Source of the DNA: an uncultured Aminicenantes bacterium
GTDB taxonomy: Bacteria > Acidobacteriota > Aminicenantia > UBA2199
Length of the DNA: 64,000 nt
Assembly (NCBI GenBank): GCA_965195285.1
Contig: CBDAFS010000062.1
Coordinates: forward strand, 64,001 to 128,000
Reading direction: 5' to 3'
A program made the position numbers and the translations under genes. This document shows positions 14,358-21,391 of this stretch, piece after piece. Position 1 is the first letter of the stretch, and each line of letters begins with the position of its first letter. Under the pieces are notes generated by a model. It worked only from the letters and a program-made list of their open reading frames with translations, was not told where the DNA came from and searched no databases.

Positions 14358-14572
14358 ACGTGATCCTATTAACACACCGAGCATGGAGGTTTCCTAAATT
14401 GTCACACTGTCAAGCACCGTTAAGCCTCTTACTTAATAAAAAGCAGGTAGAAGAAACACAAAAATTATGCTTGAAAAGTCAAACACAGATTTGACCCCTT
14501 TATATTGTATACGTCCCTTTTATCTTTTAATTTTAATTTCTAAAGTGTTATGATAAAAACAAAGTATTTAAT

Positions 14573-17500
14573 ATGATCAATAGAAGGAAAATTATTGAAA
14601 CCTTTGAACAAATATTTCTTTTAGAGCTGCATCATTTAAAAAATCGACCTGATCTAATATTTCAACAGTTGTATAATGAGCTGCAGTGGAAAGAAAGAGA
14701 AATTAAGGAAATTGTAGAAAAAGCAAGGAAAACATATTTACATTCCGGAAGATCATTTCTCCACCAGTACAGAAAACCCAAAGTTGAGGTAAATCATCTG
14801 ATGATGACCTTGGCAGGGCATAAAGATGCGGTGAATGCTTGTGTCTATTCCCCAAATGGGAAACACATTGTTTCAGCTAGCAGTGATAATACCTTAAAGA
14901 TCTGGGACAGTGAGAATGGCCAGGAAATTGCCAGACTAACAGAACATACAAGTAGGATAAAAGCATGCGCCTATTCTCCTGATGGTAAATGGATTGTTTC
15001 AGCAAGTACTGATAGAACCTTGAAGTTATGGAGCGGTGAGACATTTCAAAAAGTTTTCACACTGAAGGGACATTCAGGTGTTGTACACTCTTGTGCGTTT
15101 TCTCCGGATGGGAAGAAAGTGGTATCAGCAAGTAATGATTATATGTTAAAACTGTGGGAAACAGAGACAGGAGAGGAGCTAGCAACTCTGAAAGGGCATT
15201 CAAATTTAGTAATATCCTGTGCATTTTCACCGAATGGAAAAAGGATTGTGTCAGCTAGTTTTGATAGAACATTAAGAATCTGGGACGCTGAGACTGCCCA
15301 AGAATTAACGATATTATTAAAAAATACCAGATTGATATTTTCCTGTGCTTTTTCCCCTGATGGGAAAAAGATTATCTCATCATGTGATGATTCCACTTTA
15401 ATAGTTATAGATATTAAGACCGGCCAAACATTAGACGTATTAATCGGACATAATAAATTATCTGGTGCTGCTATATCTATGTCAGATACTGGTGGTGACC
15501 CATCTTTTTCCGGATGGATATTATCTTGTTCATATTCTCCTGATGGGAAAAGAATTGTTTCAGCTGGTTATGATGGAACCTTAAAAACCTGGGACGCTGA
15601 GACTGGCCAAGAATTAATGACTTTTAAAGAACATATAGGCCAGATAAATTTCTGTTCATACTCCCCTGATGGGAAAAGGATTATCTCAGCTGGTGCTGAT
15701 AACACAGTAAGGGTATGGGATTGTGAAATCTATAAAGAGAGAGAAATCAGGAGAGAATTAGCTATACTTAAAGGTCATAACTCGACTGTTAAGTCATGTG
15801 TTTATTCCCCTGATGGAAAAAGAATTATATCTGCAAGTCGTGATAATACCTTAAAAATCTGGGATAGTAAGACAGGGGAGGAGACACATACCCTAACTGG
15901 GCATACTGATTCTGTATGCTTCTGTTCATGGTCTCCAGATGGAAGAAGAATTATATTTGCAAGTGAAGATAAAACTTTGAAGATATGGGATGCAGAAACA
16001 GTAAAAGAAATTACCATACTAACAGGACACACAGGTGGGATAATAGCATGCGCCTATTCTCCTGATGGGAGAAGAATTATATTTGCATGTGAAGATACAA
16101 CCTTAAAAATCTGGGATAGTGCAACAGGGAAGAAGACACATACCCTAACTGGGCATACTGATTCTGTATGGTTCTGTTCATGGTCTCCTGATGGGAAAAG
16201 AATTGTATCTGCAAGTGAAGATAAAACGTTAAAGATATGGGATGCAGAAACAGGAAAGGAAATTACTACACTAACAGGACACACCGGTGGGATAATAGCA
16301 TGCGCCTATTCCCCTGATGGGAAAAGAATTGTTTCTGGAAGTAGAGATCTAGCCTTGAAGGTCTGGGATAGTGAGATTTTTATGGATCAAGCGACATTAA
16401 AAGGCCACATTGGAATGATAACTTCTTGCAATTTTTCACCAGATGGAAGAAGAATTATATCTTCAAGTACCGATAAAACCTTAAGGGTCTGGGATATTGA
16501 GAATTTTAAAGAATTGCTAACCTTAAGAGGACATGTTGATACAGTAACCTCTTGCAACTTTTCACCAGATGGAAGAAGAATTATATCTTCAAGTGACGAT
16601 AAAACCATAAGGATCTGGGATAATAAGAATGGTGAAGATTTAGTAATACCAATAGGACATACTGATGTGGTAGATGTCTGGGCTTATTCCCCAAATGGGA
16701 AACAAATTACATCTGGAAGTTTTGATAAAACCTTAAAGATCTGGGATGTAGATAGGGGAGAAATATTTTCTACACTAATTGGACATAATGATAAAATAAC
16801 GGCCTGTGCTTATTCCCCGGATGGGAAAAAAATAATCTCGGGTAGTCGTGATAATACTTTAAAAATTTGGGATAGTGAGACAGGGCGGGAAATCCATACC
16901 CTAACTGGGCATAGAGGTGAGGTGAATGCTTGTGTCTATTCCCCAAATGGGAAACACATTGTTTCAACTAGCGATGATAATAACTTAAAGATCTGGGATG
17001 CAGAAACAGGAAAGGAAATTACTACACTAACAGGACACACCGGTGGGATAATAGCATGCGCCTATTCTCCTGATGGGAGAAGAATTGTATCTGCAAGTCA
17101 AGATCAAACCTTAAAAATCTGGGATAGTAAGACTTTTGAGGAATTGCAAACATTAAGAGGTCATTTTGATGGAGTATACTCTTGTGATTTTTCCCCTGAT
17201 GGGAAAAAAATTATCTCAACAAGTGCTGATAAAACCATAAAAATATGGGATATTGAGAGAGGTAATGAGTTACTTACATTAATAGGATATTGGTTCCATA
17301 AAAATTCACTTTATGGGAAAAGAATGATTTCCGGACTTTCAGATGGCAGTGTTAATGATAAATTAAAGGTTTTGGATACAGAGACAGGAAGAGAGATTGT
17401 CACTCTTATAGGACATTCTGGACTTATATTAGATTGTGCTTGGTCTCCGGATGGGAAAAGAATTGTTTCTGGAAGTAGAGACCTAACCTTGAAGGTCTGG

Positions 17501-17635
17501 GACAGTGAAATAGGAGAGGAATTATTTATTTTTTATACTAGATATTATGTAAACAAATGCAATTTTTCTCCTGATGGAAAATCAATTGTAGCTGGGGATT
17601 ATAATGGGAATGTATATTTTCTTAAATTAGTATGA
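14573..17635 (+). CDS. Highly repetitive WD40 protein (~22 repeats) with short helical N-terminus
   Basis: 42-aa GH...C.(Y/F/W)SPDG.RI.S.S.D.TLKIWD repeats from about aa 77 to the C-terminus. Confidence 0.95.
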   Translation: MINRRKIIETFEQIFLLELHHLKNRPDLIFQQLYNELQWKEREIKEIVEKARKTYLHSGRSFLHQYRKPKVEVNHLMMTLAGHKDAVNACVYSPNGKHIVSASSDNTLKIWDSENGQEIARLTEHTSRIKACAYSPDGKWIVSASTDRTLKLWSGETFQKVFTLKGHSGVVHSCAFSPDGKKVVSASNDYMLKLWETETGEELATLKGHSNLVISCAFSPNGKRIVSASFDRTLRIWDAETAQELTILLKNTRLIFSCAFSPDGKKIISSCDDSTLIVIDIKTGQTLDVLIGHNKLSGAAISMSDTGGDPSFSGWILSCSYSPDGKRIVSAGYDGTLKTWDAETGQELMTFKEHIGQINFCSYSPDGKRIISAGADNTVRVWDCEIYKEREIRRELAILKGHNSTVKSCVYSPDGKRIISASRDNTLKIWDSKTGEETHTLTGHTDSVCFCSWSPDGRRIIFASEDKTLKIWDAETVKEITILTGHTGGIIACAYSPDGRRIIFACEDTTLKIWDSATGKKTHTLTGHTDSVWFCSWSPDGKRIVSASEDKTLKIWDAETGKEITTLTGHTGGIIACAYSPDGKRIVSGSRDLALKVWDSEIFMDQATLKGHIGMITSCNFSPDGRRIISSSTDKTLRVWDIENFKELLTLRGHVDTVTSCNFSPDGRRIISSSDDKTIRIWDNKNGEDLVIPIGHTDVVDVWAYSPNGKQITSGSFDKTLKIWDVDRGEIFSTLIGHNDKITACAYSPDGKKIISGSRDNTLKIWDSETGREIHTLTGHRGEVNACVYSPNGKHIVSTSDDNNLKIWDAETGKEITTLTGHTGGIIACAYSPDGRRIVSASQDQTLKIWDSKTFEELQTLRGHFDGVYSCDFSPDGKKIISTSADKTIKIWDIERGNELLTLIGYWFHKNSLYGKRMISGLSDGSVNDKLKVLDTETGREIVTLIGHSGLILDCAWSPDGKRIVSGSRDLTLKVWDSEIGEELFIFYTRYYVNKCNFSPDGKSIVAGDYNGNVYFLKLV

Positions 17636-17869
17636 GTATATATATTTGAACACTAAATCTCAGGCCCAGTTGGAATTAAGTAAAGTATTTTTATCAAATA
17701 AAAAAAAGGGAAAAAAGGGGGACGTCCATTAAAAGTTCATTGTCAAGTAAATAGATCAATTTTTTTGATTTTTTTTCAAAATCGGTTTAAAATTTAATTC
17801 AATGGTAACGATTAGCCCTTCTCACGCCCGTGTTTTCTGTTATTTTTGGTTTGCAGGGTTAAAATTCCC

Positions 17870-18149
17870 GCACCAGTCATCCATATGGATTTGGAGAATA
17901 AAAATATGGAAATATATCCAAAAAAAATATTTATTCTCCTTTGCACCTTTTGGTGCTCCAGAAAACCTTTGGTGCCATCCCATGTCCATAATTTTGGGTT
18001 TGCAGATAACTTATGGCTCTTTGTCCAACCCCGATTGGCTCAAGGGATGGGCGAGAGTTACTAAACATTACCATTTGTAAAGGTTGCGGCAGTTTTCCAA
18101 TCAGATCTGGTGGTTCTTAGTCCAACCCCATTACTGGTTCACTGCCGCA
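17870..18149 (-). ncRNA. Putative bridge/seek RNA of the IS110 element
   Basis: Three stem-closed loops; guide-like segments CAGATCTG and GGGGT (target) and ATGGATGA (circle junction). Confidence 0.7.
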
Positions 18150-19054
18150 GTCTGTTTTTTTATTGGTCCGAATATACGTTCAATATTATAGTCTTCTTGA
18201 TTTTTCATCACATAGTAAGAAGCACGAGCAATTTTATGAGCTAAAGCTTTTATTGCTACAATATTACTTGTTTTAGCAGCTTTTCTCTGGAAAAATCTCA
18301 TTGCATAGGGGCAATTTTTTTTCGCATGATTGGCTACTTCAACATAAGCCCAGGATAAATATTTATTACCATTCTTTCTGTTGTTTTCACCTTTCTTTTT
18401 TCCATTCGAGTATTTACCACTTGAAACACACCTGCTATAAGAGGAGTAATTTCCTACTTTTCTAAAACGATCGATTTCTCCTACTTCAAGCGAGATAGTG
18501 AGAGCAAGAATGTTCCCTATTCCGGGGATAGTCAATAGTTTTTGGAATTGGGACATAGGTTTAATAAAATCTAAAACCTTTTTTTCAATTTCTCTTATTC
18601 TCTCACTCAGAAAGATGATTGTTGCAATATTGGCCTGTATGGGCAGTCCTTTGCCGAACTAACATTAAACGCTTCCTCAGTAAATCTCTTATGGGCCTCT
18701 CTTTCTTAGGTTAAATATAACCAGTGGGTAATATCCCTAATCTTAATAACTCTGCTAAAAAAAAGCATCACCCTGGTCATTTACATACTTCTTGCCTTCA
18801 TACTGCTTGATTGCTGACGGATTTTCCAGATGGACTTTGTAACCATCTTCAATTAGAGGATCAACCAACCAGTACCAATTTTAAGTAGATTCTACAACAA
18901 CTCCTTCAATTTTCTCTTTAAAAGGCTGCAACTCCCCGGATATCAATGCATAATGATTGGGAATCTTCTTCCTGTAAATTCGCTTACCATCCTCATCTAC
19001 CATACCTAACACCGTGTTAGTAGAATGAAGATCCATACCAACATAATTTTTCAT
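18131..19054 (-). pseudogene. IS110-family transposase (DEDD RuvC + Tnp20 domains), inactivated
   Basis: MKNYVGMDLHS...VVVEST*NWYW...ND..DA and LLTIPGIGNILA..EVGEIDRF..KNGNKYL; in-frame TAA at 18881-18883, frameshift in the A8 tract near 18757-18764, further stop and an internal deletion near 18640. Confidence 0.9.
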
Positions 19055-19220
19055 AAAACACCTCCTTTATTAACTATTTGAAGGTATTTTACTACTTTTA
19101 TTTAATCATACAGAATGCCTTCTATATGATTATCAGGTCTTTGATTTAAGTATTTGTCCTTTTTTATAAACTCAAGAATTCAAGCACCGTCCCCGTCTTC
19201 GTCTTCCGTCTTATTCTTTT

Positions 19221-21341
19221 TTATTTTTGTGGAGTTTTCTTTTTGGCTGTATAGACTCCTGAAGGTTGATAAATTTCGAAACCGGTTACGTTGCCTTCTT
19301 CATCGATTAAAAATTTCAGGTTGATCATTTTATATTGTTTAATGGAAAATTCGTCGCCCAGTTGAGGCTCCAGATCGAAAAGCGGTGCTCCAGGTAATAG
19401 CAGAGTAAGGCTTTTCCCTTTCAATTCCACGGTGAAGGTCTGGCCGCTAAAATCATACTGCCCGGTAAACTGTTTCAGGAACTCCGGATCGTAAAAACGG
19501 GCAGCCGGTTTCATTTTGAAAACAATCTCCTCAAGGGTCGCTTCAAAAGGAACTTCCAGAGCTGACACAAGACCTCTTACATTGGTTCTGAAAGTCAGCT
19601 TGGTATCCTGGAAACTATCATCGGATGCTTCAGCCCCATTAAAAGTCTCAAAATGCCAGTGGTTCAGTGGTGTCGAAATCCCATTGAAGGTGAAAGCAAG
19701 TTGCTTGTCTTTTAAAAAAACCCTTAATTCACCGTATCCAGGGTGAACGTAAGTGCCGGTATATTCCTTAAGTTTATGAGCAGGATGAGTCCCTTTTTTT
19801 TGCCGTACCAGTTTTTTCTGTTTGGCTTCCTTTTCAGTTTGTTCGCCCTTCCCCTTCTTATCGGCAGCTTCAGAGAGCCATTTGATTGGTTCCAATTCCA
19901 ACAGGCGGTCGATGGCATGACGGATAAGCAGCTCAGGCAGGCCAGTGCCATTCTTATTGGCGAGAACGACAAATCCGAAACCGTCCTGAGGAAGGAAACT
20001 CACCATGGCAGAAAAACCGTCAATGTTTCCACCATGATGAACCCGGTGATGGCCACGGTAATTATCGATAAACCAGCCCATACCATAGTCAGCCGGTGAG
20101 ATTTCGGGTCTTTCATAAGTATTGCCTGTCGGCATATGAACCAGGTGCATGTCACCGATGGTAGAGGTATTAATAATTTGTTTTCCCCCGAATTTGCCCC
20201 AGTTGATGTGAACCATCACCCAGTTGCTCATTTCATTGATACTGGAGTTAATGGAACCGGCAGGTCCGATATTGGTGATGTTACGAAATGGAATCTCTTC
20301 TATTTTTCCTTCTTTTTCCCTGTAGGGCAGAGCATAATCAGTATCCTTCTGGGAGTCCAGAACTGAAAAATTGGTTCTTTTCATGCCCAGGGGGGTGAGT
20401 ACATGGGTCCGGATGGCATTTTCCCAGTTCTTTTCGGTCAACACTTCAACCAGATAACCGGCGGTTAAAAACATCAGGTTATTATACTGAAACTTTTCGC
20501 GAAGGTCAGCTGTGGGTTTCAGATGGGCCAGCCGCTGAACAAACTCTTTCCGGCTGGCAGTAAAATTGTTGTACCACATCAGATCATGCCGCGGTAATCC
20601 TGAGCGATGGGTAACCAGATCCCGTGGAGTTAACCGTTCTCCTGCATCCTGATCATAGAGGCGAAACCAGGGTATGTAATTTCGAACCGGTTTATTCCAC
20701 TCCATTTTGCCCTGATCCACCAGAATACCCAGAGCAAAGGTTGTAAAAGCCTTGGAAGATGATCCTATAGCCAGCAGGGTATCGGCGGTCATGGGAAGTT
20801 TCTGTTTGATGTCTCTATAGCCAAATCCCCTGGCTAATATAATTTTATTTTCTTTTACTATGGCCATGGCAAGACCCGGGACCTTGAATGTCTTCAAAGC
20901 CTCTTCAATGACCTTATCAAAACCAGCCAGTCTCTTTTTGGCCCGGGTAACTGGATCAGATCTCTCCATACCAAAGGGAAAGGTTTGGCCGCCCTGGGTA
21001 AAATGTCCACTGATGGTTTTACCATTCTCGCTTAATTGGCCCTCAAAGCTCGGATTGCCAGGGATACCCTTGATAGTAAAACTGACATCTTGCAGGGTTA
21101 CCGTAATCTTCTCCAGAGCAATATCTTTGGCTTGCTGAAGGGGAATAGAGATATCTCCTTCCCACAATCCCTCTTTATCCTGCTGAAAGTCAATATTAAA
21201 ATTCATCGGTTGTTGAGGGATGTCAATCTTTCCTTCCCAATGACCGGAAATAGAAGTTTTCTGATCGTTTGTTGCACCAACCTGAATGACTAATAATATT
21301 GCCAGGCAAGCAATAAAAAATTGTTTATATGTTTTATTCAT
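19221..21341 (-). CDS. Secreted serine hydrolase (beta-lactamase class C/PBP-like peptidase with DUF3471-type C-terminal domains)
   Basis: Signal peptide; SxxK (SSSK), YNN, HGG motifs, LVTHRSGLP. Confidence 0.88.
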   Translation of the reverse strand: MNKTYKQFFIACLAILLVIQVGATNDQKTSISGHWEGKIDIPQQPMNFNIDFQQDKEGLWEGDISIPLQQAKDIALEKITVTLQDVSFTIKGIPGNPSFEGQLSENGKTISGHFTQGGQTFPFGMERSDPVTRAKKRLAGFDKVIEEALKTFKVPGLAMAIVKENKIILARGFGYRDIKQKLPMTADTLLAIGSSSKAFTTFALGILVDQGKMEWNKPVRNYIPWFRLYDQDAGERLTPRDLVTHRSGLPRHDLMWYNNFTASRKEFVQRLAHLKPTADLREKFQYNNLMFLTAGYLVEVLTEKNWENAIRTHVLTPLGMKRTNFSVLDSQKDTDYALPYREKEGKIEEIPFRNITNIGPAGSINSSINEMSNWVMVHINWGKFGGKQIINTSTIGDMHLVHMPTGNTYERPEISPADYGMGWFIDNYRGHHRVHHGGNIDGFSAMVSFLPQDGFGFVVLANKNGTGLPELLIRHAIDRLLELEPIKWLSEAADKKGKGEQTEKEAKQKKLVRQKKGTHPAHKLKEYTGTYVHPGYGELRVFLKDKQLAFTFNGISTPLNHWHFETFNGAEASDDSFQDTKLTFRTNVRGLVSALEVPFEATLEEIVFKMKPAARFYDPEFLKQFTGQYDFSGQTFTVELKGKSLTLLLPGAPLFDLEPQLGDEFSIKQYKMINLKFLIDEEGNVTGFEIYQPSGVYTAKKKTPQK

Positions 21342-21391
21342 ATCACATCTCCTTAACATTATTGTCAATTTACTATTTTTGATATTAATAT

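Follow-up and report, generated by a model that had tools for sequence, protein, structure and literature searches.

The closest described systems to the one analysed here are the bridge RNA of IS621 and the seekRNAs of the IS1111 group of insertion sequences (ISs). The IS621 bridge RNA is a structured non-coding RNA of the element itself, with two guides per internal loop that read opposite strands around a core of 2 nucleotides (nt) (PMC11208160; PMC11208158); one loop serves the target, a repetitive extragenic palindromic (REP) sequence, and one the joined ends of the element (PMC11208160). The seekRNAs of ISEc11, ISPa11, ISKpn4, and ISPst6 (Siddiquee et al. 2024, PMC11187229) lie in a downstream non-coding region, with the top-strand match 5' of the bottom-strand match; the same source describes subterminal inverted repeats, a junction promoter, a REP target for ISPa11, and short and long RNA forms of 82-96 nt and 145-170 nt. 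Our subject is a window of 64,000 nt (the whole stretch of DNA analysed: contig CBDAFS010000062.1 of assembly GCA_965195285.1, positions 64,001 to 128,000, from an uncultured Aminicenantes bacterium). Positions 18149-17870 of its minus strand are the 3' non-coding region of a 1.4-kb IS110-family, IS1111-group element, and the analysis confirms that the bridge/seek RNA of this region carries loops for target and donor and, in addition to these, a conserved target-like loop.

The traits just listed for IS621 and for the IS1111 seekRNAs recur at this locus, apart from the lengths; the donor loop and the junction promoter are predicted ones here. Compared with IS621, the RNA lies 3' and not 5' of the transposase gene, the core is TG and not CT, the top- and bottom-strand guides follow the IS1111 order, the donor module contains two hairpins, and a third module built on the target scaffold stands between the other two. 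Compared with the reported seekRNA lengths, and not with their folds, the region is large: loop 1 alone takes up about 65-77 nt and the three modules together about 280 nt. Two target-loop-bearing RNA units with one donor loop are also found in the direct transfer of CazIS110-1 (Sun et al. 2025, 10.1101/2025.10.25.684509), but the second unit there is a separate truncated RNA of an IS110-group element, whereas here it would be a built-in loop. ISPpu9 (PMC12288879) and ISPpu10 (10.64898/2026.03.19.712850) likewise have a fixed insertion point in a REP, and a target stem-loop may add specificity; the present element differs from both in the architecture of its RNA and in the REP family used, which has the head GGGGTCA and flanks a Y1 transposase with a DnaA-C domain. 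In the text of this literature we found no description of a three-module form or of a second target-type loop, although the figures or supplements may show one.

Three modules of one plan

The initial annotation had read the region as a bridge/seek RNA 3' of a transposase gene, with two target-like loops and one donor loop. The RNA and its place downstream of an IS1111-type transposase are supported, and a check of the minus strand recovered the three stem-enclosed modules, with their stems and motifs, where they had been placed. The existence of three stem-closed modules over some 280 nt sets the region apart from the exactly two programmable loops of IS621. All three follow a common plan, in which a 5' guide is followed by TGG, and then CCA by a 3' guide and TGG. 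Loops 1 and 2 further share the scaffold GAGCCA..GGGGTTGGAC..GAGCCA. The parts of the modules are these:

18085-18149, minus strand: loop 1, with outer stem TGCGGCAGT/ACTGCCGCA, an internal loop holding two guides, and an inner TTGG..CCA hairpin; it carries GGGGT at 18129-18125 and CAGATCTG at 18109-18102
18125-18134, minus strand: predicted 5' guide of loop 1, GTAATGGGGT, which is the right flank ACCCCATTAC in reverse complement and overlaps the stop codon of the transposase gene
18101-18110, minus strand: predicted 3' guide of loop 1, CCAGATCTGA, in the same sense as left flank, core TG, and A
17975-18050, minus strand: loop 2, reading GAGCCA, 5' segment, TTGGAC, AAA, GAGCCA, 3' segment, TTATGGAC, with stem CCATCCC/GGGATGG
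18028-18035, minus strand: 5' segment of loop 2, ATCGGGGT, which would read ACCCCGAT; the GGGGT head is kept
18003-18013, minus strand: 3' segment of loop 2, TAAGTTATCTG, ending in a core-like TG
17870-17975, minus strand: loop 3, with outer stem GCACCA/TGGTGC and two internal hairpins; ATGGATGA lies at 17884-17877
17961-17969, minus strand: 5' segment of loop 3, AAGGTTTTC, whose presumed pairing with G and left end ATAATCAT is drawn from position and complementarity only
17877-17885, minus strand: predicted 3' guide of loop 3, TATGGATGA, in the same sense as right end ATGGA, core, and A

A 321-nt stretch of this strand folds at -95.1 kcal/mol (z = -3.73), which none of 100 shuffles equalled. 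A search of positions 17000-19500 against Rfam 15 gave five matches at E <=10, none of which reached the gathering score and each of which was to an unrelated eukaryotic family. Relatives were gathered from three sources: 401 genomes of the phylum, 38 of which had a match; a scan of one genome per species, from which the best 80 of 588 confirmed stretches were used; and a pattern scan of metagenome contigs, with at least 120 stretches. The modules recur in dozens of these relatives, from many phyla, with compensatory base-pair changes, and the same three-part non-coding region accompanies transposases that are only 50-57% identical over the C-terminal 141 amino acids (aa). RNAalifold places compensatory changes at 10 of the 16 predicted pairs of loop 1 (53 sequences), at 9 of the 12 pairs of the outer stem of loop 2 (31 sequences), and at 6 of the 14 pairs of loop 3 (42 sequences), where hairpin pairs changed on both sides in 27, 6, 6, and 4 sequences. 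Among the 53 sequences of loop 1, one closing pair is CG in 39 and UA in 10, and the next, at which the internal loop is closed, is CG in 22, UA in 19, and UG in 11. Such switching between C-G, U-A, and U-G agrees with RNA of this strand but not with duplex DNA.

A covariance model of loop 1 (R1) scores the copy in the window at 74.9 bits (E 2.3e-16) and finds the loop in 55 of 60 sources, with E values from 8e-19 to 8e-7. The five sources that it misses are the distant loci L014, L015, L018, L019, and L121 (36-39% identity), where two target-like loops and a donor-like loop can be discerned by eye, with guides CTTGA / GTTAGC that may resemble sites of the attC type. The three-loop trait may be broad within the IS1111 group.

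What the loops appear to read

Comparison of guides with insertion sites shows loop 1 to be the target-binding loop, which directs the insertions. Its 3' guide agrees with the 6 nt of the left flank at 4.33 positions in cognate pairs against 2.87 in shuffled ones (n=45 non-redundant insertions), and its 5' guide, complementary to the right flank ACCCCnnnn, with 8 nt at 5.98 against 5.13 (n=53); none of 3000 shuffles was as high in either case. The same holds for the first set of 32 non-redundant sites (left 4.25/6 against 2.74, right 6.16/8 against 5.04, both 0/3000), while the metagenome set alone gives 4.53 against 3.19 on the left (0/3000) and 5.71 against 5.35 on the right (75/3000). The left-flank offset of the 3' guide is the best in a scan of 160 offsets on both strands, and the guides mirror unusual right flanks (ACACC, ACAAC, ACCCT) as well as CG cores. 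The earlier claim that loop 1 carries the target guides is thus upheld by the flanks of both sides. The match on which it had leaned was reproduced too: CAGATCTG|ACCCC agrees with the occupied site AAGACCTG|TCCCC at 10/13 positions and with site 14486-14498 at 12/13. Alone this is a weak test, as each window is expected to hold 1.62 matches with <=2 mismatches, and at least two turn up in 48 of 100 shuffles.

Guides were extracted by regular expressions, and loci with failed or doubtful parsing were left out of the counts. The set of 32 sites, the combined flank tests, and the test on positions unexplained by loop 1 were made without L086, L050, L055, L075, L101, and L087. The first test of covariation between left guides left out L077, L079, L086, L100, L070, L087, and L101, and the comparison of divergence rates these seven plus the window copy. 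From the combined flank test we also removed the left flank of L212 and right-guide parses starting GCCA, TCCA, or TGGT. In the metagenome set, 44 elements were parsed out of 80 loci, 16 with a left flank and 21 with a right flank.

Loop 3 is shown by the same kind of comparison to be the likely donor-binding module, whose 3' guide would read the right end and core, as had been proposed. In relatives this guide, GATGGGTGA, equals right end, core, and A, and it matches them at 6.44 positions against 5.56 in shuffled pairs (2/3000 shuffles, 9 distinct pairs); variants from GGG to GAG and from GGG to GGA appear together in guide and right end. We infer a 5' donor guide on the opposite strand of the loop (..GATGATTTTC in some elements), which would pair with G and ATAATCATC at a mean of 5.85/10 Watson-Crick positions over 27 distinct pairs.

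Loop 2 shows itself in these comparisons as an old, maintained copy of the target-loop module, of which only the left half behaves like a guide. In relatives, its covarying stem encloses GAGCCA, a 5' segment with GGGGT at its end, TTGGAC, an inner hairpin whose length varies, a second GAGCCA, a 3' segment with TG at its end, and TTGGAC. By eye, this scaffold is present in all of 69 regions but two, being cleanly missing from L092 and divergent in L089. The initial annotation had taken it for a second target-like loop on the scaffold of loop 1, and the relatives bear this out: the loop is conserved, has its own covarying stem, and coincides with all seven weaker matches (E 0.006-0.55) of the loop-1 model in relatives, although that model gives no match at E <=10 on the window's own loop 2. 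Guide positions diverge at similar rates in loops 1 and 2 (0.19 and 0.18, 0.21 and 0.24, 0.58 and 0.42 in three divergence classes), and head and core positions are conserved (0.04-0.14). Active-looking elements keep the loop, with three identical copies in one genome and four full copies in another.

A separate look at the guides of loop 2 gave a divided answer. Its left guide covaries with that of loop 1, in the first set (3.8 against 2.85, 0/5000), in all loci (3.61 against 2.59, 0/3000, n=62), and in the new loci alone (3.44 against 2.51, 0/3000), and rare left half-sites (GAGTTG, GATGTG, ACGTG, GTTCCTG) are common to both loops of an element. It also follows the left flank, at 3.20 positions against 2.51 (0/3000, n=45). 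The right guide has no relation either to the right flank (4.87 against 4.87, 1641/3000 shuffles at least as high) or to the right guide of loop 1. When the segments of loop 2 were scanned against element ends and flanks (both strands, 160-180 offsets per side), the donor ends gave no match and the 5' segment no signal; the 3' segment gave a signal only at the left flank (5.07 against 4.43). A search of 300 nt on either side of the insertion at 33 loci found no second site for loop 2, with a mean best score of 10.45 for cognate and 10.20 for non-cognate pairs and a mean rank of 0.58 (0.55 for the loop-1 control).

Some variants of loop 2 were also seen. Contigs from other samples have one base fewer in its 3' segment, at 18008. 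In the L034-L047 clade this segment can form a small hairpin of its own around TGT, with one compensatory change seen by eye (GGATC/GATCC against GGATT/AATCC); if formed, it would hide part of the presumed guide. In the complete genome with L092 (2531-2700), both halves of the outer stem of loop 2 are present, with the loop itself cleanly missing from between them. We considered this locus as a natural test of whether loop 2 is dispensable and dropped it, because the genome holds a full copy, a partial one, and several fragments of the right end, from which nothing follows.

Possible roles of the extra loop

We think it probable that this dead IS1111 element holds a bridge/seek RNA with loop 1 for the target, loop 3 for the donor, and loop 2 as a conserved target-type module, and we read the latter, from the comparisons above, as a putative half-site module. 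In intact relatives, joining of the ends would form a promoter across them, from which the transposase mRNA would be transcribed together with the region, and the transcript would yield a bridge/seek RNA of about 280 nt made of three modules of one plan. Module 2 might then bind a further recombinase dimer and read only the left half-site and core of REP-type DNA, a proposal that we make tentatively. During excision or direct transfer it would keep hold of the resident left junction or of a REP, and it would not specify a second insertion site. More speculative still is the generalisation that a large IS1111-type branch uses a three-site bridge RNA, in which the extra loop would bind a further recombinase dimer and read the left half-site and core of REP DNA, and in which this third DNA contact, made with the resident junction or a nearby repeat, would couple excision or direct transfer to insertion. 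A half-site role is plausible because of three published or preprint results, none of them on this family: excision substrates of IS621 span both loops (PMC13626964), substrates matching only half of the bridge RNA can recombine (10.64898/2026.08.31.748434), and a truncated target-loop RNA cooperates with the bridge RNA in a direct-transfer pathway (10.1101/2025.10.25.684509). Among the readings of loop 2, we think that the half-site role is the most likely.

A number of observations weigh against this view. The shuffle counts given above overstate significance, because elements that are related do not count as independent. Parts of the region are covered by contigs from two RNA libraries, and contig cover does not show transcription. 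The 5' guide of loop 3 has no cognate excess (5.85 against 5.92 over the 27 distinct pairs); such covariation is lacking because both partners are nearly invariant. The right junction of the window copy (17722-17724) is CG then T, whereas relatives and the element's own guides have TG then A, and the same CGTCCCC junction stands in two other flank contexts from other samples, which makes three in all. Where the left guides of the two loops disagree, the flank agrees with loop 1 at 65 positions, with loop 2 at 14, and with neither at 24. The tracking of the flank by loop 2 could for this reason stem from a likeness to loop 1 that was inherited, or from concerted evolution, and involve no pairing to DNA. 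Lastly, the short seekRNA of ISEc11 alone is reported to be sufficient for transposition in the source that describes it (PMC11187229), and the extra modules may therefore be dispensable.

The last two points lead to the reading of loop 2 as a structural or protein-binding scaffold, e.g. a landing pad for a recombinase dimer or a processing signal, that does not pair with DNA, its likeness to a target loop being ancestry and its left segment the product of concerted evolution. Neither guide of loop 2 has a relation to the flank that is independent of loop 1, the 3' segment of one clade forms the hairpin mentioned above, the sufficiency of the ISEc11 short form agrees with such a role, and the same counts are explained if the likeness of left guides comes from concerted evolution. 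A pure scaffold would nevertheless have no need to preserve the UG core and the GGGGU head (divergence 0.05-0.14) where the remaining positions drift as fast as guides do, and the left guides covary even for unusual half-sites, flanked by 6-7 nt of identity that are short for gene conversion. We therefore find this role unlikely, and yet less so than the one in which the recombinase uses either loop 1 or loop 2 as alternative target loops and addresses two variants of the repeat. This latter idea, already put forward in the initial annotation, is the least supported of the three live readings. It draws on the scaffold that loop 2 shares with loop 1, with core UG, head GGGGU, and fast-changing guide positions; on a better fit of loop 2 than of loop 1 at 6 of 58 sites, each by 1-2 bases only; and on the window's own genome, where the loop-2 reading ACCCCGAT is the commonest class of REP-like site (7/53, against 2/53 for ACCCCATT of loop 1), a single case scored by eye and post hoc. 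The flanks themselves side with loop 1: at 253 positions where the loops disagree, they agree with loop 1 at 150, with loop 2 at 42, and with neither at 61 (85, 28, and 37 for the right positions), and of the positions unexplained by loop 1, loop 2 accounts for a share of 0.36 against 0.39 +/- 0.05 in shuffles (1403/2000 at least as high). The lack of any cognate relation for the right guide of loop 2 points the same way. Moreover, its right 8-mer is found at 0/20, 0/5, 0/29, and 0/13 unoccupied REP-like sites of the four other genomes with a loop 2 in their element, whereas that of loop 1 has exact sites in four of five (1/20, 2/5, 1/13, and 9/22, with 0/29 in the fifth; all by eye).

Two further explanations take another view of the modules. 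Loops 2 and 3 might be a single multi-loop donor-binding domain of an ordinary two-part bridge RNA. Durrant et al. (PMC11208160) describe, in the passage concerned, nucleotides that may bind the donor and that lie within a multi-loop structure in many IS1111 orthologues, and loop 3 itself holds two hairpins. We consider this very improbable, given that loop 2 is closed by its own covarying stem, that its segments vary between elements while donor ends are nearly invariant, that their only cognate signal is at the left flank, and that both donor guides can be placed within loop 3. The other explanation, that the conserved blocks act as DNA, either as transposase-binding sites or as right-end repeats, is hardly credible to us: IS1111 subterminal repeats are thought to be recognised at the DNA level (PMC11187229), but compensatory changes, together with G-U pairs that can form on this strand only, preserve the stems, covariation links the guides to flanks outside the element, and the layout matches that of characterised seek/bridge RNAs.

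Current engineering of bridge/seek RNAs into programmable guides for recombination starts from the assumption of two loops, a target loop and a donor loop. A third covarying module is kept in at least 120 metagenome stretches and apparently, by eye, in the more distant clade at 36-39% identity. Should this module touch DNA or govern the stoichiometry of the complex, it is relevant to excision and site choice in the IS1111 group, to the sufficiency of short seekRNAs in some assays, and to efforts to minimise or reprogram such systems; if it is only a scaffold, this is still useful for design. If the three-site reading is true, two loops are not enough to describe the family, which then has a third programmable input.

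The element, its ends, and its repeat target

We identify the element as an ISGsu4-like insertion sequence of the IS110 family, IS1111 group, now decayed, which occupies a REP-like repeat at TG|ACCCC. Its ends were placed by comparison with relatives, whose left junction reads ..CAAGACCTG|ATAATCAT.TAG, after TG, and whose right junction reads ..CTAATGGGTG|ACCCC, with the common core TG, or CG in some. On the minus strand it runs from the left end, ATAATCATATAG, through the transposase gene and a non-coding region of 400 nt (18130 to 17723) to the right end, TTGACA-N17-..AATGGACG:

17723-19133, minus strand: whole element, 1411 bp, starting ATAATCATATAG at 19133 and finishing AATGGACG at 17723
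19134-19142, minus strand: left flank, AAAGACCTG, REP-like, with core TG; the same 8-14 nt are common to differently flanked contigs of other samples
18131-19054, minus strand: transposase pseudogene, interrupted by two in-frame stops and by two or more changes of frame, with a gap of some 36 residues relative to the 338-aa protein of relative L078
17741-17746, minus strand: TTGACA, putative -35 box in the right end; joined ends would give TTGACA, 17 nt, GATAAT (read by eye)
17713-17722, minus strand: right flank, TCCCCCTTTT, whose TCCCC is kept in two other flank contexts
14478-14498, plus strand: unoccupied REP-like hairpin GTCAAA-CACAGA-TTTGAC followed by CCC, with a predicted insertion point between 14493 and 14494

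With the 338-aa L078 protein as tblastn query, the transposase aligns as three pieces in two frames at 57-66% identity. Its C-terminal 141 aa, the sole open part, match PF02371 (Transposase_20), which is the C-terminal domain of the DEDD (RuvC-like) transposases of this family, at E 6.5e-11, and the N-terminal fragment of 57 aa alone matched no Pfam family. Relatives are labelled 'IS110-like element ISGsu4 family transposase' by the annotation pipeline PGAP; plasmid annotation of the nearer ISfinder relatives (IS4321/IS5075/ISEc11) reads only 'IS110 family transposase', with ISGsu4 in two records. The subterminal repeats agree at 8-9/9 positions in most relatives and at 5/9 in the window copy. 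The layout TTGACA-17-GATAAT across joined ends is the same in relatives, and junction promoters have been described for the IS1111 family (PMC11187229). No joined-end circle junction was seen in the contigs of four sequencing runs that cover the element.

The window copy is inert: its transposase is a pseudogene and it is the single copy in the genome, where a search returned only the element itself and one 25-nt match. As the transposase is broken, the local RNA is without a partner. Contigs from other samples carry the same element, mostly 95-99% alike, in different flanks; they diverge from the window beyond 17715-17718 and 19141-19147, with flanks differing each time, which agrees with the ends as placed. 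They are 124 bases longer at 18638, have a different reading at both in-frame stop positions, and have one extra base at 18756 in the transposase region (the differences noted lie at 18638, 18711, 18756, 18881, and, in loop 2, 18008). From the greater length of copies elsewhere and their different reading at both stops, it follows that the lineage is intact elsewhere and that the window holds a decayed member of it. One sequencing run (X2) has very high contig depth confined to the element. In L075 and L125 (L081), the element is directly followed by additional tandem copies of the final 25-45 bases of its right end, which would be the expected trace of repeated insertion beside a resident right end.

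The repeat family that serves as target has the head GGGGTCA(A/G)(G/A)TCT and comprises several sub-classes with differing inner sequence. The pattern RRAYYTGWCCCC has 53 sites in the window's genome, spread over many contigs, against 12 for a reversed control pattern, and a T at the place where the right junction of the window copy has one is found in only 5 of the 53. Certain sites are arranged as inverted pairs with a spacing of about 200 bp, and others delimit units of 1 kb. One such unit, of 1038 bp (contig C14:33136-34173) and bounded by inverted GGGGTCAAGTCTACTGTTGACTC, encodes a protein with PF01797 (7e-15) and PF08299 (2.5e-9), i.e. a Y1 (IS200-like) transposase that also has a DnaA-C domain. 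What had been called the 'empty site' at 14486 belongs to this family, which is associated with a REP-associated tyrosine transposase (RAYT), and is not a special site; four further copies in the genome carry AAACGTCAAACACAGATTTGACCCC or a close variant. The target is alike across phyla because it is the head of one REP family. This branch of ISs is thus tied to one REP family (head GGGGTCA, RAYT with a DnaA-C domain), and elements of unrelated phyla therefore share nearly the same target.

Two genes border the element. Upstream, on the same strand, 19224-21368 (minus strand) encodes 715 aa with a Pfam Beta-lactamase fold (PF00144, 5e-65) and DUF3471, and ends just upstream of the element. On the other side, 14573-17632 (plus strand) encodes a 1020-aa protein made almost wholly of WD40 repeats (19 stretches).

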